A DNA stretch of 64,000 bases from a virus, in the IMG/VR virus record IMGVR_UViG_3300031920_000199; one strand, written 5' to 3'. The notes beneath the pieces were generated by a model. It saw only the letters and a program-made list of their open reading frames with translations. It was not told the origin of the DNA and made no database searches. Every line of letters starts with the position of its first letter. Position 1 is the first letter of the stretch. The translations under genes and the position numbers were made by a program. Below are positions 3,005 to 61,418 of the stretch, in pieces.

Positions 3005-4875
3005 TTTGACACTCCGAAGTGTTTTCCTATATCCTTTATCCAGTTATGGAACGTCTTTATCGATAGTATTTCTTCCTTAGCACTATCCGTTGCTTTCTTC
3101 TGCTGTACCTCCATCGTTCTTGAATTATATCTCTTCTGAAAATTAGTCTTTTCAATTCTGTCCTTTGATAGTTCTATTTTGTCAACAATACTCTGATCTG
3201 TTGACTCATTCACGCACTCCTTTGCTTCTGTCAGCTGCTTGTTCAGAGATCCAGTTGTAGATGCGCTCTGAGCGTCGGAGCTGAATATACCTTTCCAATC
3301 ACCAGTCTTAAATGCGGATGCCACCTTATCAAATCCCATGTCATCTGCCATCCCGCGGATATCAGTTACGATGCTCTTTCCCTCTTCCAGAACAGATGTC
3401 CCTCCATCTTCTCTGAGAGATTTAACAACATCTGGCACGGCCAGAAGGACATCGACTATCAATGATGACTTGTCTAGCTGATCATCAATGATCCTAACAA
3501 TCTCATTCTTTCTCCACTCGATATGCGCAAGACTCGTGTTGACAGATATCTTCTGTGTGCATTCAGAATGAAATCGCCTTAGGTGGAATATAAGATCCGT
3601 CATGCTGGCGGAAGACTCATAGAAATCAATATTACTTAGATCATCACCTATCTCATCGAATATAGTTCTATATCCATCTGGATCGCTTTCAATATAGTCA
3701 TCCAGAACTTTGTATGTATTTTCCATAAGCGCATGTATTACATTAAGCCTCATAATCCATGATGCCATCTTTTTGATTAGTTTGAGTCTAACTCTGCTCG
3801 AGATAGTCTCTTCCATCTCACGTATTATATTCCGTATCTGAACCTGTATGTTGGCTATCAATGTTGCAGCCATGTTGTCAAATCTTGAGTTCTCCAACAG
3901 GTTCTCAGCAAAGTCTTGTATGTTCAGCTTATGCTTGTCTATACCATCCTGAACCTTTTCCAGCCTATCGGTAAGTCTGCCAAGGGCCACCAGAAGAAGC
4001 TGAACCTCAACCATTCCAAAGTCAAGTGCTATGCCACTGTAATCGCTCAAATCTTCTATTGCCAACTTAACGTGGTCATCAGCCTCTTTGAACATACTGT
4101 TATCAAACAGATGCTGATATGTCTTTCTTCTTACTATCATCAGCTTCTGATCTGCTGAATTTAATTCGTCCTTGGCATCAATTATTCTCTGTTTGATATT
4201 TAATCCATACCAGCCTGGATCAAGATGCAGAAACTCGTCATATATCTCTATAACTATTTCCTTTATAGCAACGAGCAGTCCGCGCCTAAGAAGATTCTTT
4301 GTCCCAAATGCTTCTGTGCAGTCCTGCGCTATCGCCCACACACTCTTCGGCTCATGGATGAATGCCAATGCCGTTAGGACTGAGAATTTCTGGAAGTTTC
4401 TATTGTCTTCTCCTATTGCATTAGATCCTATTGTTGCGGCGATACCGAATGTACCTATCACGACCTGCTTCAGACGAGCCTTCGCCGTAGTTGATCCGAT
4501 TATATTACCCATTGACTCAGTTGTATCTTTGTCGGTCTCGCTTGTCTTGTCAAGAACGAAATCCATGTCTGAATTTTCAGCAGACTGAATGTTCCCGCTT
4601 TCCTTTCCTGGGTCGAGAATCTTGTCTATACCAGACCCAAGCAATGCGAGCACTTGGCCTTTGTCCTTATCCTTAATATCGCTAAAGGAGAATGCTGAAA
4701 GACCAGTCGCAAGGATGGTTCCCATCTTCGACTTAACGAACTTCTTTACATTCTCAGTAGCAAGACCCATCTTCTCGAAGAATGTAACATTGTCCGCTAC
4801 GTTTTTAGACTCTTCCTCGACCTGAGCCTCACCCTCCTCAACTAACTGTTCTGCGTTTTCTTTGCAAGTAGCCAT
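3001..4875 (-). CDS. Hypothetical 624-aa helical protein in the baseplate operon
   Basis: Long ORF with overlapping start/stop codons on both sides; no recognisable motif. Confidence 0.7.
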   Translation of the reverse strand: MATCKENAEQLVEEGEAQVEEESKNVADNVTFFEKMGLATENVKKFVKSKMGTILATGLSAFSFSDIKDKDKGQVLALLGSGIDKILDPGKESGNIQSAENSDMDFVLDKTSETDKDTTESMGNIIGSTTAKARLKQVVIGTFGIAATIGSNAIGEDNRNFQKFSVLTALAFIHEPKSVWAIAQDCTEAFGTKNLLRRGLLVAIKEIVIEIYDEFLHLDPGWYGLNIKQRIIDAKDELNSADQKLMIVRRKTYQHLFDNSMFKEADDHVKLAIEDLSDYSGIALDFGMVEVQLLLVALGRLTDRLEKVQDGIDKHKLNIQDFAENLLENSRFDNMAATLIANIQVQIRNIIREMEETISSRVRLKLIKKMASWIMRLNVIHALMENTYKVLDDYIESDPDGYRTIFDEIGDDLSNIDFYESSASMTDLIFHLRRFHSECTQKISVNTSLAHIEWRKNEIVRIIDDQLDKSSLIVDVLLAVPDVVKSLREDGGTSVLEEGKSIVTDIRGMADDMGFDKVASAFKTGDWKGIFSSDAQSASTTGSLNKQLTEAKECVNESTDQSIVDKIELSKDRIEKTNFQKRYNSRTMEVQQKKATDSAKEEILSIKTFHNWIKDIGKHFGVSK

Positions 4876-5573
4876 TATCGATACCTGTCCATTTTTTCAC
4901 CTATGCTTCTCTTAAGCTGACTGACCTTGGAAGGAGAGACTTTTAGTTTCTTTGCGATATCATTACCGCTCAGTTTATTCTTTCCATGAGAACCAATAGT
5001 GTAATCATATACAGACTGCTCTTGTGGAGACAATTCAAAGTAAATGTAATTGAGAACTTCTCTACTGGGGTCGCTGGATATGTATCCAAAGTCGCTCATA
5101 GCATCTGTTGGGGCTATATCCTTTCTGAGTTCCTTATCCATCCTCTCAACTTCCTGTATAGGCCACGATAGCTCATCAGACAACTCTACTTGAGATGGCT
5201 CTCTACCAAACTTCGTCTCAAGATTTGATTTCACGTTGTTGAATGTCTGAATCTTAATCACACGCTCTTCTGGTATATAACCAACGTTCTGCCTGCTGTA
5301 TACATACCTGTTTAGCTTCTTCATCCAGTTCGTTGTGTGAGTTGAGAGCTTTGTATTCCTATCTGGATTGTATGTCTCGAAAGACTTAACAGCCCACTTC
5401 TTTGCTTCCAGGTTAAGAGCAGAGTTTGGTATTGGCGCATTCTTAAACTTATTGACATTAGACTGGATTGTCGGACTCATATAGTCCAGAAGGTCGTTCA
5501 GGTTACCTGGACTGCGATCAACATTCCATTTCTTCCACAGATCCATCTCTTGACTTGCGCTTCTATCTACCAT
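4875..5573 (-). CDS. RNA polymerase sigma factor (sigma-70 family, group 3-like)
   Basis: 232 aa; region 2 (FETYNPDRNTKLSTHTTNW), region 3 (FGREPSQVELSDELSW) and region 4 HTH (LSGNDIAKKLKVSPSKVSQLK). Confidence 0.85.
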   Translation of the reverse strand: MVDRSASQEMDLWKKWNVDRSPGNLNDLLDYMSPTIQSNVNKFKNAPIPNSALNLEAKKWAVKSFETYNPDRNTKLSTHTTNWMKKLNRYVYSRQNVGYIPEERVIKIQTFNNVKSNLETKFGREPSQVELSDELSWPIQEVERMDKELRKDIAPTDAMSDFGYISSDPSREVLNYIYFELSPQEQSVYDYTIGSHGKNKLSGNDIAKKLKVSPSKVSQLKRSIGEKMDRYR

Positions 5574-21511: not shown

Positions 21512-21697
21512 ATGGACAATGTTTTAACAACCAGAGAAGCAGAAGTAGTCAAAAAGGTAAAGAAGCAGTTTAGGATGGATCAGTACGAGTTTACAAAGGA
21601 TGATAAATGCGATGGCATTGGCCTGCAGATAGGCGGAGATCACATCGTCCTCGACCAGGACTCAAGAAATCGCATTGTCAAATTCAGGTTAAACTAG
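21512..21697 (+). CDS. Small hypothetical protein
   Basis: ATG 21512 after AAGGGA; 61 aa. Confidence 0.55.
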   Translation: MDNVLTTREAEVVKKVKKQFRMDQYEFTKDDKCDGIGLQIGGDHIVLDQDSRNRIVKFRLN

Positions 21698-21708
21698 GAG
21701 GAACATCG

Positions 21709-24462
21709 GTGCTTAATCCAGAACAGAAGAAGGCTGCTCACAGCCTTAATCCAGCCATCGTCACAGCAGGTCCTGGCAGTGGTAAAACAAAGACCCTCAT
21801 TGAGAGGGTCGCTTTTTTACTTGACAATAAAGTATCACCACAAGAGATTCTCTGCTTTACCTTCACAAGGGGGGCCGCAAAGGAAATGAAGGAGCGGCTA
21901 GAGGAGAGATTCAGCATAGATGGCCTAACAGTAACAACAATCCACTCATTCTGCCTAAGCCTAATTAGAGAAGGGTATGATCTACTTGGGTTTAAAGAGC
22001 ACATCCTGACATACGACGATACAGATAGTAAAGATCTAAAGACAATAATCGCCAAGGAAAATAAGTGGGAATATAATGCTCGAAACGAAGAGAAGTCAAA
22101 AGACATCGAGAAGATCAGTAAGGAATATCTATGCCGTCTTCGCGAATATAATGCTGTGAACTTTGACCAGATGCAGGAGTTCGCTATCAATCTATTCAGA
22201 AAAGGGCATATGAGGCATATCCAGAGCCAGTTCAGATATATCATTGTTGATGAGATGCAAGATACGTCTGACGTAGACTTCGAGCTCATAAAGCACATAG
22301 CCAAGAAACATAGGAATGTATTCGGAGTAGGCGATATAGATCAGTGTGTTGTAAAGGGAACGCTCGTAGATCTTCCAGATGGCAACAAAAAACCTATCGA
22401 GCTTATAAATGAAGGAGATGAGATTCTCTCCTGCTTCGGATCTGGTAAGTTTCGAAAATCGACCGTCTCTTATCACAAGAAGTCAAAATCAAACAATATA
22501 GTTCGCATAGAACTCGATAATGGATATGTCTTAGAATCAACACCAGACCACACTCATTTCGCTGGATACGTTACGGGACACACGCCAGAAATGCATGTCG
22601 TATACCTAATGTATAAAAACGGACTTGGGTTTAGGACTGGTGTGTCTGGAACATACGCAAAATCTCAATACAAACCGAGATTGGGCATATCCGTGAGATG
22701 CAATCATGAGAAGGCAGATGCCCTTTGGGTGATTTCATCGCACAATAATGATCTCGATGCGAGATACGAAGAAGCTCGTATTGCGGCAAAGTATGGACTC
22801 ATAAAGCTTCCGTTTGTTGCCAGAAAATCGAAAACACAGGCGAACGGAAACCTGTCTGGAAGCCAGGAGCACCTAGACAGACTGTTCGGCGAGTTTGGCA
22901 GCAATGGGTACAAACTACTTTTCGATAATAAATTGAGATTTGATGAACCACATATAATACCATCTGGATACACAGCATCTGACCACAAACGAAGAGTACT
23001 TAATATTATTCTTTGTGGTGACTGTAGAGGTAAGTATCCAACGCATAGAATCTCATTCAATTTCTTTGACGCAGATACAAAAGAGGCACTCGAGTCTCTT
23101 GGTCTGAACATTAGATCAGCAGGAAAAGGCAGGAAAAGTATGAGATTCGAGACGTCTAATTCCAGCATGAAGGAAATACATAGGATAGCAAATCTAATTG
23201 CGTCAAGGATTGATGTTGTTGTAAAGCAGTCAATCAGACTTGCGTCATACGACGGAGACAGAAATTCTCTCCCAATGACATATGCATCATCCGTAAGAGA
23301 TGGAATGGTTATGGCTTGCAGAGATGGAAAGTTCCACGTTGTCAAGTCTGTTGAGCACATCAATGGTGATTTCGAGGTATATGACATCAATGTAAATAAA
23401 TCACATAACTTCATCGCAAATGGAATTATTACCCATAATTGCATCTTTGAGTGGAGAGGTGCAAACCCTGGACTCATTAAACTACTCGAGAAATATAATA
23501 AGGATGGGTACAATGTAGAACTCACGAAGAGCTACAGATGCCCACAGAAGGTTCTTGACCTATGCAATACTCTGTCAATGACAAAACTTGTATCCTGTGT
23601 TGGTGATGGCGATGATCCAGTCTTCAATGAATTTGACTGCATCGAAGAGGAGGCTGAGTCAATCATGGATATATGCAACGCAGAGAAACCGAAGAGTGTC
23701 GGAATTTTATGCCGCACAAACAAGATACTCTCTTTCATCTCCAGCTACTTTGTAGAGAGAGGATTTGTACACCATGTCGTTGGTGACAAGATCAAGATGA
23801 TAGATGATCCTGCAGTTCGCTTATTTAATGCGTTCATAAAGGTATGGCATAACCACAAGGATTACTTGCATTTCTTCAATGTTATGCCTATACTATATAA
23901 TAACATACCGACGAGACAGATACGCAGAGTAAGATCAAAGTCGGTTATTGAAAACAAGACATTGCTTGAGGTAGCCAGGGATGACTTCGACATGTCTATA
24001 TTCGACTACGGTAGCAACGACTTCGTTGATCTGGTTTCTGATCGCCTACACAAGTGGTACACGGAAAGATCAATGCTCACAAAGGCAGCAACAATTAGAG
24101 CATACCAGAACTTTATAAATGAATGGTTTACTAATAATCCAGGGGCAGATCTCGAAGACTTCGTATTCTATCTGAGCGATCTTAATGTTACTGAAGACAG
24201 CCACCAGGAGGTTGAAGAGAACCCGATAAATATGCTGACTATTCATGCATCAAAGGGTTTGGAGTTTGACTACGTCTTCATTCCGCAGATGAATAAGAGA
24301 GCATTCCGATCAAATGATAGGAACGTAGTATTTGTTGCTATGTCACGAACGAAGAAGAAACTCCATATGTCATACTCAAAGTTTGTCTCATATGGAGAGG
24401 TCATGAAAGAGATAACCCCAAGTATCTTCTTGGAAGATATGAATTTGTTAAACAGGAGATAA
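21709..24462 (+). CDS. uvrD: UvrD/PcrA-like SF1 helicase containing an intein
   Basis: AGPGSGKT, CFTFTRGAAKEM, TTIHSF, IVDEMQD, VGDIDQ|..|CIFEWRGA, KSYRC, LTIHASKGLEF; start revised to GTG 21709 after AGGAGG. Confidence 0.92.
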   Translation: MLNPEQKKAAHSLNPAIVTAGPGSGKTKTLIERVAFLLDNKVSPQEILCFTFTRGAAKEMKERLEERFSIDGLTVTTIHSFCLSLIREGYDLLGFKEHILTYDDTDSKDLKTIIAKENKWEYNARNEEKSKDIEKISKEYLCRLREYNAVNFDQMQEFAINLFRKGHMRHIQSQFRYIIVDEMQDTSDVDFELIKHIAKKHRNVFGVGDIDQCVVKGTLVDLPDGNKKPIELINEGDEILSCFGSGKFRKSTVSYHKKSKSNNIVRIELDNGYVLESTPDHTHFAGYVTGHTPEMHVVYLMYKNGLGFRTGVSGTYAKSQYKPRLGISVRCNHEKADALWVISSHNNDLDARYEEARIAAKYGLIKLPFVARKSKTQANGNLSGSQEHLDRLFGEFGSNGYKLLFDNKLRFDEPHIIPSGYTASDHKRRVLNIILCGDCRGKYPTHRISFNFFDADTKEALESLGLNIRSAGKGRKSMRFETSNSSMKEIHRIANLIASRIDVVVKQSIRLASYDGDRNSLPMTYASSVRDGMVMACRDGKFHVVKSVEHINGDFEVYDINVNKSHNFIANGIITHNCIFEWRGANPGLIKLLEKYNKDGYNVELTKSYRCPQKVLDLCNTLSMTKLVSCVGDGDDPVFNEFDCIEEEAESIMDICNAEKPKSVGILCRTNKILSFISSYFVERGFVHHVVGDKIKMIDDPAVRLFNAFIKVWHNHKDYLHFFNVMPILYNNIPTRQIRRVRSKSVIENKTLLEVARDDFDMSIFDYGSNDFVDLVSDRLHKWYTERSMLTKAATIRAYQNFINEWFTNNPGADLEDFVFYLSDLNVTEDSHQEVEENPINMLTIHASKGLEFDYVFIPQMNKRAFRSNDRNVVFVAMSRTKKKLHMSYSKFVSYGEVMKEITPSIFLEDMNLLNRR
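22345..23439 (+). mobile_element. Intein (365 aa) in helicase motif III
   Basis: Starts CVVKGTLVDLPDG, ends HNFIANGIITHN followed by Cys; removal restores DQ-CIFEWRGA. Confidence 0.92.
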
Positions 24463-41086: not shown

Positions 41087-42823
41087 TTACAGATTATAAA
41101 AACCGTTTACAATTGCTAGATCAATAATATCGGGTGGCGCATCACTGACCAGTGGCCACGTAATAGCCTTCCGCATTCTGAGCTCACTATCGACTGTTGA
41201 GCTCTGTTCACATGACGCCTTCTTCATTAGTCGAGCCGCGCCTAAAAAAGATGCTAAGCTTAAATACGCAGGATGTTTAACAAACTGCATTCCGATGTCT
41301 CCAGGAACTTTCCCTTTTGTCCGAAACTGCTCCTCCTTATGTGCTTTTACAAAATAAGGAAGTGTAGAAACGCCGAGAGCGGACAGTAACTTCTTCGGAG
41401 CAGACATATCTTTCAATCCTTTCAGATTTAAAGCAGCTGTCTTTTCCAATTGGTTCTTGACCTTTCCGACGCCAGCAGCAGCAACGGCACCCAGAAGCGC
41501 AGTTATGATAGGCTTCTTCTGGGCTGCATCAATGAGAAAACTCCCTGGTAGCTTAAGGATCTTTGACCTATACAAATCGAGGATGGCGGCTACGGTAGCG
41601 ACGGTTGGCAGACCCTTGGAGACCAGGTCCTGCTGGAGAGTCTGATCCTTATAATCGACTACAGGATTCTGGCTCGCTAACTTCACCACCCGCATCCGAA
41701 GAGCAGGTCTATAAGAGCTCCTATCCACCATATAAGGCTTTAGCATGGATATGATCTTATCGCTAATCGATTCGGAGTCGATAATTGGAGTTACATCTTC
41801 TCCGCCTTTCGATTTCAAGATAATGATCTTTTGAAACTCTCTTGGCTTAAGTACCATACCCATACCAGTAATTGTCGAGAGAATATTGCGAAGCGGGAAT
41901 GCCGCCATATCCCCAAGGGTTCTATCTGGTAGACTGGGCTCCAAAGAACATATCTTTGGTATCAGAGACACGAAAGCCTTCATAACATCCTGGTTCGGCT
42001 TTTCGGTCTTTACCTCTTCGACTGGAATTTCTTTCTTTATCTCAGCCGACTTATCTTCAGCTCGCTTAGGCTCTTCGACTCCTAGCGCATCAGCTATAAA
42101 AACTGATGGCACAACCACCTTCGAGCTTGCGACTTTATCCATCACGTAAGAAGCCTGCTCAGCTGGTTTAAGAACAAAAGAGATGTCAAAGAACCTGGGA
42201 TATTTATTGATGGCATATACTTTCCTACCATCTGTTAAAGTCTGATTCATTGCGTACTTAAGATGTTCGCAGTAGTCGTCACGCTTCTTTGCCTGATTCC
42301 CGCAGATACTGCATTCATCATAAAGTACTTTGCATCCCATTGAAACAGGGATTGCACGGCCAGATTCAGCCTTCTTTACTAAATCTGCATCTTTCTTTCT
42401 GTCGATAAAAGTTACGAGCTGAACTCTGTCCATTCTATCGTTATATGTGGAAAATGCAACCTTTTCTCCAACAGCAAGATTAATGTCTTTGTTCACGTGA
42501 TGCTTGAATGGGTATGCATACTTTACGAAAGTCTTATATCCGTAGTCCTGAATTCTAGGAGTGCCTACTTCAATTGGAGCTTCATGGGCAAGTACGTCTG
42601 ATTCGAAATAATCACCGTTGTTATTTGAACCCCAATTGGAACCACCGAGAGCGTTTATGTGGATATAAATGCCATCTTCGCGAGGCTTTAGTGTGCTTAC
42701 GAACTTAACAATATCATCATTAACAGAGGCACACTTATACATAAAGTCGTCATGCATATCAATTACAGAGACAAGTGGTTCGTCTCCAAAGTAACCTGGA
42801 TCTGTTGTTATGAGTTTATACAT
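41087..42823 (-). CDS. Putative prohead maturation protease (HK97/assemblin-like) with Zn finger and C-terminal extension
   Basis: NNNGDYF, PFKHHVNKD (His), PVSMGCKV (Ser), CSICG..CEH, FFDISFV..PA; upstream of scaffold and capsid genes. Confidence 0.65.
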   Translation of the reverse strand: MYKLITTDPGYFGDEPLVSVIDMHDDFMYKCASVNDDIVKFVSTLKPREDGIYIHINALGGSNWGSNNNGDYFESDVLAHEAPIEVGTPRIQDYGYKTFVKYAYPFKHHVNKDINLAVGEKVAFSTYNDRMDRVQLVTFIDRKKDADLVKKAESGRAIPVSMGCKVLYDECSICGNQAKKRDDYCEHLKYAMNQTLTDGRKVYAINKYPRFFDISFVLKPAEQASYVMDKVASSKVVVPSVFIADALGVEEPKRAEDKSAEIKKEIPVEEVKTEKPNQDVMKAFVSLIPKICSLEPSLPDRTLGDMAAFPLRNILSTITGMGMVLKPREFQKIIILKSKGGEDVTPIIDSESISDKIISMLKPYMVDRSSYRPALRMRVVKLASQNPVVDYKDQTLQQDLVSKGLPTVATVAAILDLYRSKILKLPGSFLIDAAQKKPIITALLGAVAAAGVGKVKNQLEKTAALNLKGLKDMSAPKKLLSALGVSTLPYFVKAHKEEQFRTKGKVPGDIGMQFVKHPAYLSLASFLGAARLMKKASCEQSSTVDSELRMRKAITWPLVSDAPPDIIDLAIVNGFYNL

Positions 42824-42854
42824 ATTAGTTTATACATATTAGTTTATACATATT
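42813..42854. repeat. Three perfect tandem copies of 14-mer AGTTTATACATATT spanning the protease start codon
   Basis: 42813-26, 42827-40, 42841-54. Confidence 0.95.
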
Positions 42855-42865
42855 ACCTTATACTC

Positions 42866-43201
42866 TTATTTATAGAGGCCTCTTCTTGACAATCTCATTA
42901 TGTCTGGAGTATCAAAAGGACCCTTCGGTTCTTTAACAGACATCAATTTCTTTGGGGTTATAGACTTACGTGCCCCCTTTGCGGTTGATGTTACCATGGT
43001 ACGTGGATCAGTCACGCCAATAATCTTTGCACGAACTGGAAGCTTCTTCGTTTTACCAGCGATCGTTCTAAGTGTTTTACCTACCCAGCCAGCATCCTTC
43101 GCCAGCTCTGGTGCAAGAGCAACAATCAGACGGATACGCTGATCAGAAGAGGCAAGCTTGTCTAGTTCGTCCAAGAAAGAATTCAAAAGTATTTCATTCA
43201 T
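42866..43201 (-). CDS. K-x-A-motif basic protein
   Basis: MNEILLNSFLDELDKLAS leader. Confidence 0.65.
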   Translation of the reverse strand: MNEILLNSFLDELDKLASSDQRIRLIVALAPELAKDAGWVGKTLRTIAGKTKKLPVRAKIIGVTDPRTMVTSTAKGARKSITPKKLMSVKEPKGPFDTPDIMRLSRRGLYK

Positions 43202-43887: not shown

Positions 43888-44226
43888 CTATCGTGGAACT
43901 GGAATATTTCTCGCCAGATCCCTTAGTTGAGCCTTCCCTCGCAACGGTGCCGAAGTCTTATAGGCTTTTGCCATATCAGATGCAAGGAAAGTTCCCGTAA
44001 CGCCAGCGCCAATCGTAGCTCCAGGATGCTTCCAGGCAAACCCTCCGACGCCCTTGGCAGCTTTTCCTGCAAGAGGAAGAGCCTTCTTGGCGGCAAAGAT
44101 ACCTGCTTTACCTGTTCCGAGCAATGCTTTTGCACCAAACCTTAGAGCGTGACCAACAAAAGCGGTCTTCTCATCCTGGCGAGTGCACAGCGCTCTGATA
44201 AGGTTGAGTTGGGCTGTCGTTCTCAT
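43888..44226 (-). CDS. K-x-A-motif cationic amphipathic protein
   Basis: DEKTAF followed by Gly/Ala/Lys-rich helix; start uncertain. Confidence 0.55.
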   Translation of the reverse strand: MRTTAQLNLIRALCTRQDEKTAFVGHALRFGAKALLGTGKAGIFAAKKALPLAGKAAKGVGGFAWKHPGATIGAGVTGTFLASDMAKAYKTSAPLRGKAQLRDLARNIPVPR

Positions 44227-45133
44227 TAAGAATATTCTTTATGTAATCGTCACGTTGTACAGAACCACTGATATCTTCAATTTTCCCTTTGATGATGTTA
44301 ACACCGCTGTCCATCATCCACGTAGCCCTTCTCAGTTTATCCTCGTCATCAAGATTACCTCCAAGGGTATCAACCCCCTGGATTAGCGGATGTCTGTTAT
44401 TGATGACGGTTACCTTATTTGAGGTTGGCAACGCTTTATCTGATTCAATGACCTGATCGATTACGTTTGTCGGGTCTCCTTGAGCAAGCTTCTCGTGAAT
44501 CCCAAAGATGCCCTGATCTCTCAGGTCTTTATATATATTTGCGAATAGTGGTTTTATATCGTGTTTGGAGTGGTTTAGTGCTATTCCTGCAATCTTGTGG
44601 AAGTCTTCACCCATTAGAACCATCTGCTTTACTATATAGTGGATATCTCTTTCAGATGCTTGCTTCTTCATCGTATTCTCATATGTACGATGCCTAAGCT
44701 CTATTTTAGCATTACTAACCTGTCGTCTTAACTTCGACGCAACCTTAACCTTCTCAGCAACTTCTGGCTCGTTAGATATGCTTTTAACGCCAAACGATGA
44801 GTTGATCTCTTCAGAGCTGGCTGTTTTTTTGATGTTTGGTGTTGACTTATAATCAAGATGTGATTGCTCAAGGGAGATACCCTCAAGCTCAGATGCGACC
44901 TTTGCTGGTGTGGCGATATCAAAATCCAACGCCTTGTCACGATTGGTAGGAAATATGGAATTGTAAGTCGCGAGATTTGCTACCTCACACACCCTTTTAA
45001 TTTGCGTAGGATTTAGATCATTCTCAACAGCGAGCTTTGCTATTTCGCTATTTAATCCTAAACCAGATTTTAGGTATGTTGACGCGGCCTGCTTGCCCCA
45101 TTCTCCAAATCTTGAAGGTTGGATTGATGGCAT
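44171..45133 (-). CDS. First gene of the head operon, K-x-A-rich protein
   Basis: 320 aa, eight K[QLVTI]A motifs; GGAGG RBS. Confidence 0.75.
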   Translation of the reverse strand: MPSIQPSRFGEWGKQAASTYLKSGLGLNSEIAKLAVENDLNPTQIKRVCEVANLATYNSIFPTNRDKALDFDIATPAKVASELEGISLEQSHLDYKSTPNIKKTASSEEINSSFGVKSISNEPEVAEKVKVASKLRRQVSNAKIELRHRTYENTMKKQASERDIHYIVKQMVLMGEDFHKIAGIALNHSKHDIKPLFANIYKDLRDQGIFGIHEKLAQGDPTNVIDQVIESDKALPTSNKVTVINNRHPLIQGVDTLGGNLDDEDKLRRATWMMDSGVNIIKGKIEDISGSVQRDDYIKNILNENDSPTQPYQSAVHSPG

Positions 45134-45307: not shown

Positions 45308-45316
45308 TGTTATAAT
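45308..45316 (+). promoter_or_regulatory. Extended -10 TGTTATAAT just upstream of the structured array (second candidate AGGTATAAG at 45242-45250)
   Basis: Perfect TGn-TATAAT; predicted start about 45323, just before unit 1. Confidence 0.55.
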
Positions 45317-45330
45317 GACAATTTATAACA

Positions 45331-46695
45331 TCATCGATATCGATATAAACAGGAGATACTCCTGTCAAGATTGTAAGTGCAGGATATATTTTCATCGACA
45401 TGAAGATGCATTGTGAAGCATGCTCCTAGTCATATCGATAAATTTGGTTATTGGATATCGAAGTTAATTATGTGAATGATACATTCACGTGGATAAATGA
45501 TTGTTTTTTTTATGGAATCGCTCCTTCGTATATCAGGATAATACCCTGATCTAGAAGCTGCCAGTTCTTATATTGGATATCGAAATCGCAGTTGCTACAG
45601 CTGCACTGTCTGTAGATTAGACCAATCTATATTACCATGAAGACGAGGCGCGTCTGCAACGCTTTTCTTCTTCAGGTTTATGATTATTAATTTAGGATAT
45701 CGAGTTCATTGTGGATGGTACATCCACTCAGTTAGGCAAGGTTGAATACATGGTAATCTCATCTCAACGAGACCGATAAAAAGGTCCTGTAAAGATGAGA
45801 TATTTATCACCATATTTGGATATCATCGAGTTTATAGTCGTTACGACTATGAGGAGTAAAAGAGAAGTATTTATAGAGGATCCCGCCGCCTCGTGATAAA
45901 ACATAACGGCCCGTCGGCGGGATCCTTTTTCTATATTACATTATTGGATGATCCGAACAAATGACTGATACAGTCATGCAGAATCACACTTAGCAGATTA
46001 TTCCGCTCACGCGATGCCGTTACATATCGCCTCCGCGGATGCTCATTATCTACTTAGGGATCATATCATAATCGAAACCGTGACTGTTACAGCCACACAG
46101 AGTTGTTATATAAGACATTTATTAACAACCTGGTCTTACGCATTCTGCGAGACCAGGTTATTAATTATTGATTTGGATTATGGATCACTTAATCGAAGGA
46201 GTGGTTGTTACGACCACAGAGTAGCATTGGATAGACAGTATCTCCACCATGACTGGTAGTCGACCTTTGGTCGCCTCACGCACAGAGATACATATATTTT
46301 GGATTAAGAAAAATCATCTCCGATCGGATGAAAATTCGTACATGATACATGTGCGACGATACCAAGCGATGAGTTATCTTTTAGCTCGGCTGCGGCAGCT
46401 CTATTCTATAGCTGCCGCAGCGGTTAATAATTATAATGGATCGGAAATTTTAATGTGGAACTGATGGAGCTGGTACAGCTTCACCGATTTACGCAACAGT
46501 GTTATCCAGATTGCCGAGCACCGCCTCCTCTGCGAAGAGGAGGAGCTCACAACTGATAATCACATTTAGCACATTATGGAATATGAAGATGTAACATCTT
46601 CGCCTGCGGACCTAAATCCAGACATTTTATAGACTATATAGGCAGGGCACGCATCTCCTGTAGGTCGAGCCGTGCCCAAGGAATTAGTCTTATTA
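45331..46695 (+). ncRNA. Array of 11 structurally conserved ~124-nt units (uncharacterised ncRNA array)
   Basis: 7-bp stem/triloop hairpins start at 45349, 45472, 45588, 45711, 45834, 45961, 46080, 46201, 46338, 46466, 46585; GGAT..TCGA leaders; second variable hairpin in each unit; no credible ORF. Confidence 0.8.
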
Positions 46696-46723
46696 TCTGT
46701 CTACTGCATATGTGCGAAAAATA

Positions 46724-46732
46724 TGGTATAAT
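46724..46732 (+). promoter_or_regulatory. Extended -10 promoter TGGTATAAT
   Basis: Recurrent motif AAAATATGGTATAATAATAATA. Confidence 0.7.
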
Positions 46733-46864
46733 AATAATAGAGACCAAAACGTTTACACATGAAAGGAGGTGAGAATTATAATCTGATGCGTGGTGTATTA
46801 TATGTTTTTGAGTGGCTTCTAAAATTATAATCTTATATATTGAAGATAGGAGAATAAATGAAAT

Positions 46865-50013: not shown

Positions 50014-50871
50014 ATGAGGATACCAAAAAATAGCAAGGGCCTTGAGCCGTCCTTCCAGTTCTATCCAGCGGACTGGCTAGGTGATCATAATCTACAATCT
50101 TGTTCGTTAGAATCGATTGGATTGTGGATAAATCTGATGTGTATCATGCACAATAACAAAAAGTATGGGCACTTAACTCTGAATGGATCGATCCCGAATG
50201 ATCAAAAAATCTCAAAGATTCTCGGTATTGCCACCAAAAAATACAAAAGAATCATGAAAGAACTTGCCGTTTCTGGGGTACCTGGAGTGACAAAAGAAGG
50301 CATGCTATATAGCAAGAGAATGGTTGCTGACAAAGAACTTAGGTCAAAATTCAATGACAAACAGAGGTCTAATTCAATGAAAAGGTGGGATAGATCTGGG
50401 ATATCCCAAACTGATGCCAGTGGGACAAAAAAAGAGGATGCCAAATCATCCCCTTCTTCTTCTTCTTCTTCTTCTTCTTCTTCTTCCTCTTCAGGTAAAG
50501 AAGTAAAGAAGGATAATTACGAAGAAGACCGCAAGGAAATAATAATCTATTTCAACAAGATCGCTGGGACAAAGTACAGGCATAACTCAAAGGCGATATC
50601 AGGCATGATTAACGCACGTCTTAACGAAGGTCACACAACAGATGACCTTAAGATGGTTATCGATAAGAAATCTGTTGAGTGGAAGGACGACCTGAAGATG
50701 AAGAAGTTCTTCAGACCAATAACGCTATTTAATTCAGAAAAATTCGAAACGTATCTCAATCAACCTCTAGTAATTCCAGAGAGTAAAACAACTTCTACAA
50801 TAAAAAGCGTACTAGATCGGTTCAAAGATGATCCAGAAGACGCAAAGGAGGTAACAGCAGATGTTGTCTAA
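50014..50871 (+). CDS. Phage replication initiator (N-terminal wHTH, poly-Ser linker, conserved phage C-terminal domain)
   Basis: PSFQFYPADWL..IGLWINLMC; ARLNEGHTTDDLKMVIDKKSVEW..RPITLFNSEKFETYLNQ. Confidence 0.85.
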   Translation: MRIPKNSKGLEPSFQFYPADWLGDHNLQSCSLESIGLWINLMCIMHNNKKYGHLTLNGSIPNDQKISKILGIATKKYKRIMKELAVSGVPGVTKEGMLYSKRMVADKELRSKFNDKQRSNSMKRWDRSGISQTDASGTKKEDAKSSPSSSSSSSSSSSSSGKEVKKDNYEEDRKEIIIYFNKIAGTKYRHNSKAISGMINARLNEGHTTDDLKMVIDKKSVEWKDDLKMKKFFRPITLFNSEKFETYLNQPLVIPESKTTSTIKSVLDRFKDDPEDAKEVTADVV

Positions 50872-60671: not shown

Positions 60672-61418
60672 ATGGCAAGTAATGTGAAGTTGAATCAGAT
60701 AGTATCAGTAGAAAAAGGAGTGAAGTCCCGTCATCACTCCATGATATCGAAGTTGCATCATGCATCGGGTCATGATCAGTTGTTTAATGGTCTCAACAAG
60801 AATTACCAGCCTCTCGATGAGGATGGTCACAAACTCCCCGAAGAATCAGTCGTTGTTCAGTGTTGCTGTGAAAGATCGATCGAGATGTTCAACGCATCGA
60901 TATGCGAACTATTGGACACAGTTTCCACGAAAGACTTTGGAAACGCCAATGCAGTAGCAGACATTGTCCTTGAGGACGGAACGATAGTACTCAAAGCTGT
61001 TCCACCGACATTCCTGCTGTTCCTCGAAAAAGAGCTGAATAACATCAGTACATTTATCGAGGAGCTTCCTACTCTTGATCCCGCAGAAGAGTGGTCAAAA
61101 GATGAGGGATCTGGGTTGTTCAAGTCGAAGGAACGTCAGACCCAAAAGACCAAAAAGATAGAGAAACCCGTAACCCTTTACGAAGCAACAAAGGAGCATC
61201 CCGCTCAGACACAGCTCGTCACGTCTGATGAGCTAATCGGGTACTGGTACCAGATAAAGATGAGCGGTGCAATGCCGAAGACAAAAAAGAAAGAGCTTCT
61301 GGACAAGACAGCTGGAATGCTAAGAGCTGTCAAGTTCGCCAGAGAAGCGGCGAACAATACTGAGATCGAACGGAAAAGTAAAATAGGCGAGAGTGTGCTG
61401 AAGCACATTTTCGGATAA
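60672..61418 (+). CDS. Conserved uncharacterised protein (family recalled as DUF7873, unverified)
   Basis: KLNQIVSVEKGVKS..YQPLDEDG..LPEES..FLLFLEK..LPTLDP..ATKEHPAQ..KFARE.AN; resembles a widespread actinobacterial/phage family. Confidence 0.75.
   Translation: MASNVKLNQIVSVEKGVKSRHHSMISKLHHASGHDQLFNGLNKNYQPLDEDGHKLPEESVVVQCCCERSIEMFNASICELLDTVSTKDFGNANAVADIVLEDGTIVLKAVPPTFLLFLEKELNNISTFIEELPTLDPAEEWSKDEGSGLFKSKERQTQKTKKIEKPVTLYEATKEHPAQTQLVTSDELIGYWYQIKMSGAMPKTKKKELLDKTAGMLRAVKFAREAANNTEIERKSKIGESVLKHIFG

Follow-up and report, generated by a model that had tools for sequence, protein, structure and literature searches.

A conserved tandem array of structured units with a fixed hairpin handle in six related lineages of uncultured phages

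A stretch of 64 kb (the window) from the 68-kb viral contig IMGVR_UViG_3300031920_000199 holds a row of eleven modules that share one small hairpin, a closing helix and an order of parts, with most of the remaining sequence free to differ. The element is real, far beyond chance: it is a new conserved tandem structured element composed of a fixed handle and a free remainder, and it recurs in six related lineages of uncultured phages (the window and the loci L369, L001, L373, L386 and L387), with 3-21 units in each and 65 units in total. Its existence, fold, conservation and specificity are established, as are the sense-strand signature of the small hairpin and the co-occurrence of the array with one protein family, represented in the window by P0009, the product of the first gene after the array. 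As to mechanism, a multivalent protein-binding RNA is ranked first, tentatively, with a retron-like array of templates as the main rival.

Location and extent of the array

The array lies between minus-strand structural genes, among them those of a tail sheath and a baseplate J protein, which therefore mark the phage as a myovirus, and plus-strand early and replication genes, with a DnaD-like initiator at 50014. Gene orientation switches at this point and the cumulative GC skew reaches its minimum. When the window was scanned for hairpins with a 7-bp stem and a 3-nt loop closed by G-C, 31 sites were found: 11 form an ordered array in about 1.3 kb, at spacings of 116-137 nt, and the other 20 are scattered over the remaining 62.7 kb, all of them imperfect and with no shared loop. 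The eleven hairpin starts coincide exactly with those in the first-pass annotation of this DNA, and so do the loops (Table 1), the spacings and the count of 8 among 11 that read TG-loop-CA. The interval is gene-free, holding only short open reading frames (ORFs) of at most 81 aa, and the array has diverged too far from its closest relative for the frames of such ORFs to be conserved. Its end had been placed at 46695 and is here moved to about 46714, because the eleventh unit closes there.

Architecture of the unit

The first-pass annotation placed a GGAT...CGA-type leader ahead of each hairpin. These sequences are not a leader: they supply the 3' and 5' strands of P1, a helix that closes each unit over a long distance. 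The motif TTGGATATCGA is the P1 3' strand of one unit (TTGGAT, unit n) abutting the P1 5' strand of the next (ATCGAA, unit n+1), and the unit borders have been redrawn, each unit being a closed domain with its P1. The helix became visible in a repeat search as inverted repeats, about 100 nt apart, that connect the sequences before successive hairpins, and P1 was then curated for all units.

A unit begins with the P1 5' strand, a G and usually five more nucleotides, which lead into the 7-bp hairpin P2. Three nucleotides after P2 comes a conserved G(A), followed by an A/C-rich linker, a long hairpin, P3, and an AU-rich tail that ends UU(U/A)G just before the P1 3' strand; a G thus stands at the inner end of both P1 strands. 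The P2 loop has the consensus Y-G-N-U-A-C-R on a stem that is free to vary, and P3 is present in every unit with free sequence. Modules in the window measure 117-145 nt, the ten complete units cut at their P1 borders 117-134 nt.

P1 was found in most units, non-palindromic helices included. Its sequence varies, both in the window (GATATC/GATATC and the pairs in Table 1) and in the relatives (CTTTGTAT/ATACAAGG, GCCATT/AATGGC and ATGCAGATCAT/ATGATCGGTAT), and within an array the two borders of one unit form better helices than non-cognate borders do (mean helix score 13.1 vs 10.4; Mann-Whitney p = 2e-12). Folded without constraints, the ten excised units adopt P1/P2/P3 as their minimum free energy (MFE) structure or come within ~1-3 kcal of the fold in which P1 and P2 are enforced; for unit 1 the free and the enforced MFE are equal. 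MFE folding of the whole array returned no clean unit domains and did not tell the strands apart (z -6 to -19 on both).

The palindromic P1 hexamer GATATC is shared between neighbours at window junctions 45451-45462, 45573-45584 and 45693-45703, and again in L001 units 9-14; L387 has CATATG as its junction palindrome instead, and other junctions contain GATC or CGATCG. Such sharing may reflect alternative folds, processing or a site that acts in the DNA.

Conservation and specificity

Relatives were located through the divergent 320-aa gene that flanks the array on its other side. IMG/VR contains one relative of this gene with 47% identity (L001), and metagenome assemblies contain further ones (loci L369-L375), the protein of L369 being 72% identical to that of the window. 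Upstream of these relatives, on the corresponding strand, arrays were found with 21 units in L001 and 11 each in L369 and L373. The arrays take up 1.4 to 2.9 kb of these compact genomes, and their units range from 100 to 270 nt across the phages. At 23-41% identity, more distant relatives of this gene (L377-L382) lack both an array and a P0009-family gene.

A unit-by-unit alignment of the window array with that of L369 is possible only for some stretches. In these the handle is kept, the P2 stems are fully compensated and P3 is replaced outright; in unit 11, e.g., GAAGATG-TAA-CATCTTC of the window corresponds to AAAAGTG-ATA-CACTTTT of L369. Over 54 curated units, G7 and A10 of the hairpin are invariant, C11 is kept in 53 and U9 in 49, position 6 is a pyrimidine in 49 and position 12 a purine in 50. 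Outside the hairpin, G stands at -6 in 35/54 units and at +4 in 45/54, and the G at -6 is also seen in 6-7 of the 8 units of the independent L386 array. In the P2 alignment of the 54 units 98% of the cells pair and six of the seven base pairs change on both sides, a count that is circular, since pairing was the criterion by which units were chosen; loop, flanking Gs and spacing played no part in that choice. The common structural handle with a variable remainder that the first-pass annotation had proposed is thus kept across all six lineages.

Specificity was measured with R1, a covariance model of the 39-nt handle (the hairpin and its flanks). The 11 window units score 22-33 bits, and the next best match in the window, on either strand, scores 16.9 bits. 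R1 has no match in six distant relatives of the 320-aa gene, and its maximum in 779 kb of unrelated DNA is 18.6 bits, with two matches. An independent test came from the L386 and L387 contigs, for which an array was predicted from their P0009-family genes alone and which have ORF-free DNA upstream of the gene. Although not trained on either contig, R1 finds 8 units in L386 and 3 in L387, where the contig ends, all co-oriented with the gene, and these units obey the G-N5-P2-N3-G rule. In both its near and its distant mode, BLASTN gave no match to the region among 50,697 phage records. Scans of viral, metagenome and genome collections with the junction motif as a DNA pattern gave almost only chance matches; among the matches listed, only L001 has an array.

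Strand, promoter and downstream protein

All five arrays with a visible start have an extended -10 promoter 20-35 nt ahead of their first unit, which reads TGTTATAAT in the window and TGGTATAAT in L369, L001, L373 and L386. The plus strand, headed by this dedicated, putative promoter, is likely the transcribed one. Among the non-Watson-Crick oppositions of P2, read on the plus strand, G.U outnumbers A.C by 23 to 4, an excess that fits a fold of the sense strand, and of 31 P2 hairpins informative on this point, 23 have the sense strand as the more stable one. The internal mismatches of P1 are uninformative on strand (G.U 5, A.C 3).

Homologues of P0009 follow the arrays of L369, L001, L373, L386 and L387; in L373 and L001 the homologue is a 212-aa gene. 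An exhaustive profile search of 1.84 billion representative proteins returned only six, two of them giant, repetitive and probably spurious. Array and P0009-family gene co-occur in 6/6 lineages, and the family was seen only with arrays. P0009, which is specific to this clade, is the best candidate for a protein that possibly binds the handle.

A multivalent early RNA and its alternatives

The explanation ranked first, to be taken as a tentative preference, is a multivalent protein-binding early RNA. The interval would be a separate, very early, non-coding plus-strand transcription unit, and its transcript a string of 11 self-contained modules. The invariant corner of each module (the P1 end, G, P2 and G) would form a common handle, repeated 3-21 times per phage, which would be the binding site of one protein, P0009 being the best candidate. 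At the start of infection the array may then act as a multivalent RNA partner, i.e., as a scaffold, a sponge or an antidote, ahead of a region that in one relative holds anti-defence genes: the early region behind the L373 array includes AcrVA2-like and Lar-type genes, which fits a host-takeover or anti-defence setting. A fold and a few nucleotides that are kept, a remainder that changes and a travelling companion protein seen nowhere else point to a dedicated, so far undescribed RNA-protein (or RNA-DNA-protein) system, with the handle as a compact, sequence-tolerant module. Should a protein of the host or of the phage bind the handle, the array would represent a new kind of viral multivalent RNA.

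Several observations weigh against this explanation. At the shortest junctions (units 1-5 and 10/11) a single hexamer is the P1 strand of both neighbours, and therefore not all P1 helices can form at once. The sequencing runs that hold the stretch are of DNA only, from marine sediment. The co-occurrence with P0009 may be plain synteny, because all six phages are related. P0009 has no Pfam, PHROG or fold match, and PDB sequence profiles and the ESM Atlas returned nothing for it. AlphaFold gave a first model with a predicted local distance difference test score (pLDDT) of 45 and, in a second run, one model of five with pLDDT 80, the others at ~42; Foldseek matched the P0009 model to no PDB entry significantly and, in the AlphaFold Database, only weakly to a YbjN-like protein.

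The long hairpins raise a further objection. Unit bodies (P3) were folded with Watson-Crick pairs only and single mismatches inside helices were counted: on the sense strand A.C occurs 14 times and G.U twice, where composition alone predicts a ratio of only ~1.2 to 1. The same procedure applied to P2 gives G.U 9 and A.C 1 (P2 vs bodies, Fisher p = 3.5e-6). The full body spectrum is UU 12, CA 11, UC 8, AA 7, CU 6, GG 4, CC 4, GA 4, AC 3, AG 2, GU 1 and UG 1. Read on the complement it becomes G.T 14, G.A 14, A.A 12, T.T 7, C.T 6, G.G 4, C.C 4 and A.C 2, roughly the order of DNA mismatch stability in nearest-neighbour data. Bodies are more stable as the complement in 44/59 cases; shuffled bodies show about half of the strand energy difference (remainder p = 0.008), so part of this energy asymmetry is compositional. 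There is, then, a strong hint that the long hairpins are selected on the strand opposite to that of P2. It is a hint and not a fact, because the sample is small (16 informative mismatches, p ~0.006 after composition) and the asymmetry was found after several other tests. P3, the "cargo" hairpin of the first-pass annotation, is not conserved even in close relatives, and its mismatches fit the complementary strand, a spectrum that a simple RNA-cargo model does not predict.

This asymmetry would suit a retron-like template array, a reading that is unlikely on present evidence and still the main rival. The units would be msr-msd-type RNAs whose P3 is copied into a small hairpin DNA. P1 would correspond to the a1/a2 stem, and P2 to the hairpin recognized by the polymerase; priming would use the G that follows the 5' strand of P1. 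The template would be P3 with the AU-rich tail, copied from the UUUG beside the P1 3' strand by a reverse transcriptase that comes from the host, is encoded at an unlinked site or belongs to no recognised kind. The unit grammar matches that of a retron non-coding RNA (ncRNA) point by point, P2 and P3 appear selected on opposite strands, the complement mismatches of P3 follow DNA mismatch stability, and P3 sequence is free even between close relatives. To our knowledge, no system other than the retron is known to use one stretch of a unit as RNA and the following stretch as complementary DNA. Against this stand the limits of the asymmetry given above and a consistent lack of the enzyme: RVT_1 is missing from the 60 ORFs of at least 120 aa in the window (64 of the contig's 68 kb), no reverse transcriptase is among the window's PHROGs matches or in the 28.9-kb L001 contig, none is recorded within ~27 kb downstream or 9 kb upstream of the L373 array, and none is in the gene tables of L369, L386 or L387; Rfam gave no match either. 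Were the reading true, 11-21 different small hairpin DNAs would arise early in infection, e.g., as decoys aimed at host immunity that senses or cuts DNA, and the array would be a virus-side, multi-template relative of retrons. Should a reverse transcriptase turn up, the array would be a multi-template retron variant unlinked from its enzyme; if the hairpins are copied into DNA, retron-type biology would extend to viral arrays of this unlinked kind.

The other readings are far less probable, each of them failing at one point put to the test. That the units are trans-acting guide or antisense small RNAs, with the linker or P3 pairing to differing host or phage targets, is quite improbable: the arrangement of a unit, with a single-stranded A/C-rich linker joining two hairpins, resembles that of many small RNAs, but the linkers show no complementarity beyond chance to the other 62 kb of the phage (best E 0.27), and linkers and P3 are not conserved in close relatives, in which the handle is. 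A DNA-level element between the structural and early operons (a replication origin, packaging site or insulator) is improbable to the same degree. The orientation switch with its skew minimum and the palindromic junction cores GATATC, CATATG and CGATCG would suit it; the strand-specific tolerance of G.U in P2, the covarying, non-palindromic pairing of borders ~100 nt apart, the stems that are free while loops are fixed, and the conserved promoter that reads into the array would not. Both strand signatures, P2 in sense and P3 in antisense, would be reconciled if P2 were extruded as a plus-strand DNA hairpin and served as an N4-like promoter for leftward transcription, yielding antisense RNAs that contain the P3 of the previous unit. 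The early promoters of N4 have a 5-7 bp stem, a 3-nt loop and conserved loop bases, a geometry that P2 shares. This reading is nevertheless very improbable, given that the 60 window ORFs (the largest of 1198 aa) include no single-subunit or virion RNA polymerase family, that this myovirus has a sigma-like factor, that the predicted start has no conserved nucleotide, that the covariation of P1 goes unexplained and that the conserved host-type promoter points the other way. Least probable of those weighed is a self-cleaving or RNase-processing cassette that cuts a precursor at the unit borders: units do abut exactly (TTGGAT/ATCGAA) and ~8-9 conserved nucleotides surround a multi-helix junction, but Rfam gave no ribozyme match even at E 10, and there are few conserved positions, most of them within a single hairpin loop.

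Features of the array and its surroundings

Table 1. Coordinates of the array, its flanking genes and other features of the window.
Feature	Coordinates	Strand	Remarks
Divergent 320-aa gene	44171..45133	-	Synteny anchor; relatives used to locate arrays
Extended -10 promoter TGTTATAAT	45308..45316	+	~33 nt before first hairpin; presumed transcript start, predicted from sequence
Unit 1	45334..45461	+	128 nt; P1 45334-45341/45454-45461; P2 45349-45365, loop ATA; long hairpin between
Unit 2	45451..45584	+	P2 45472-45488, loop ATA; P1 strands overlap units 1 and 3 (GATATC palindrome)
Unit 3	45572..45705	+	P2 45588-45604, loop CTA, one U.G pair
Unit 4	45696..45824	+	P2 45711-45727, loop GTA
Unit 5	45822..45952	+	P2 45834-45850, loop TTA; P3 GC-rich, ~14 bp, then T run
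Unit 6	45948..46064	+	P1 ATGATCC/GGATCAT; P2 45961-45977, loop ATA
Unit 7	46066..46183	+	P1 TCATAATC/GATTATGG, non-palindromic; P2 46080-46096, loop TTA; one C.A mismatch in P3
Unit 8	46188..46308	+	P1 CTTAATC/GATTAAG; P2 46201-46217, loop TTA
Unit 9	46316..46448	+	P1 ATCTCCGATC/GATCGGAAAT; P2 46338-46354, loop ATA
Unit 10	46451..46576	+	P1 TAATGTG/CACATTA; P2 46466-46482, loop GTA; handle nearly identical in L369
Unit 11	46570..46714	+	P2 46585-46601, loop TAA; probable P1 CACATTATG/CATATGTG (46707-46714), assigned by eye; 5' strand shared with 3' strand of unit 10
Second extended -10 promoter TGGTATAAT	46724..46732	+	Between array and next gene
Tiny ORF MRGVLYVFEWLLKL	46786..46830	+	14 codons; strong Shine-Dalgarno sequence ahead
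Gene of P0009	46865..47353	+	162 aa; first gene after array
Sigma-70 consensus promoter	45210-45183	-	Perfect (TTGACA, 16 nt, TATAAT); heads 320-aa gene
Sigma-like gene	4875-5573
UvrD-type helicase gene	21607-24462		Interrupted by intein
578-aa gene	41087-42823
Tandem 14-nt unit TATTAGTTTATACA	42809-42874		4.9 copies, between two structural genes
DUF7873 gene	60672-61418		E 4e-83

The second extended -10 promoter is kept as TGGTATAAT or TGGTATAAG in L369, L386 and L387. The tiny ORF that follows it, between the array and the P0009 gene, may encode a leader peptide or a micro-protein; related peptides occupy the same place in L369 (MRAVLYVFEWLQKL) and L386 (LRGVKYLWEYAKK...). On the other side of the array, the 320-aa gene is the first of the structural block, and its perfect sigma-70 promoter is apparently kept in L369, as judged by eye; such a promoter is unusual at the head of a late operon when the phage has a sigma-like gene as well.

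Elsewhere in these phages, the counterparts of the 578-aa gene in L375 and L373 contain inteins and measure 940 and 1315 aa, respectively, and R1 has no match at the DUF7873 gene or just downstream. In the L373 phage (contigs L384/L388), a run of small early genes lies ~6-27 kb after the array, with AcrVA2-like, SEC-C, two DUF6948, Lar restriction-alleviation, AAA ATPase, DUF5131 and SSB genes. A contig of this phage is 155 kb long, and the phage may thus greatly exceed that of the window in size.

Relation to known systems

In agreement with the first-pass annotation, which recognised no described family, Rfam 15 gave zero matches at the gathering threshold in the window; at E <= 10 there are six chance-level matches only, the best with E 0.28. 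Literature searches returned no description of such arrays. The exclusion of CRISPR and of ToxI-type repeats likewise stands. The array has no identical repeats, and no Cas family reaches E <= 1e-4 in the window, where a C2c1 wedge-domain match remains below threshold (E 0.0028, 18.2 bits vs a cut-off of 27); repeats are limited to imperfect ones of 14-32 nt at the junctions, and Tandem Repeats Finder finds no tandem repeat. The PADLOC matches, as far as listed (25 of 54 families), are nearly all GajB helicase models.

Other identities were tried and rejected: a tRNA or tmRNA cluster (ARAGORN 0 genes, no Rfam match), C/D-box RNAs (four weak Rfam matches, E 0.28-4.6, taken as chance), a hammerhead (no CUGANGA...GAAA core by eye), a kink-turn or loop E at the P1 end (no tandem G.A) and 11 separate sigma-70 promoters.

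Among known systems, the retron ncRNA (msr-msd, as in Retron-Eco1/Ec86) resembles a unit of the array in its closing stem made from the unit ends, the G directly after the 5' strand, and a short fixed-loop hairpin near the 5' end ahead of a long one whose sequence is free; in the array the short hairpin bears a sense-strand signature, and the mismatches of the long one hint at selection on the complement. It differs in that a retron has one unit and the array 3-21 in tandem, with closing strands that neighbours share or abut, no match to the Rfam msr model and no reverse transcriptase in the window or near the six arrays. Type III toxin-antitoxin systems (ToxI-ToxN, CptIN, TenpIN) offer a promoter, tandem RNA units, a small-protein gene (90-212 aa) and the idea of one protein that binds every unit. 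ToxI repeats, however, are 36 nt long and near-identical, whereas array units are 100-270 nt and share only structure; array and gene are separated by a promoter and a tiny ORF, not by a terminator, and the small gene that lies downstream in 6/6 arrays has no Pfam, PHROG or fold match, nor one to an endoribonuclease of the ToxN/AbiQ/CptN type or another toxin family.

The sponge RNAs CsrB and RsmZ are also long non-coding RNAs that present the same small hairpin-loop motif many times, but theirs are GGA loops, and the array has G-NUA-C on a 7-bp stem inside a closed module, in far larger units. The hairpin promoters of the N4 virion RNA polymerase share with P2 the short stem, the 3-nt loop, the fixed loop bases and the variable stems; the array has no such polymerase, holds 11-21 copies without genes behind them and places its hairpins inside a long-range helix. 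Phage tRNA clusters, too, are tandem rows of ~100-nt structured, end-paired units in the early region, with a cloverleaf that the array units lack. The element thus fails a defining feature of every family considered and is therefore filed as a new kind.

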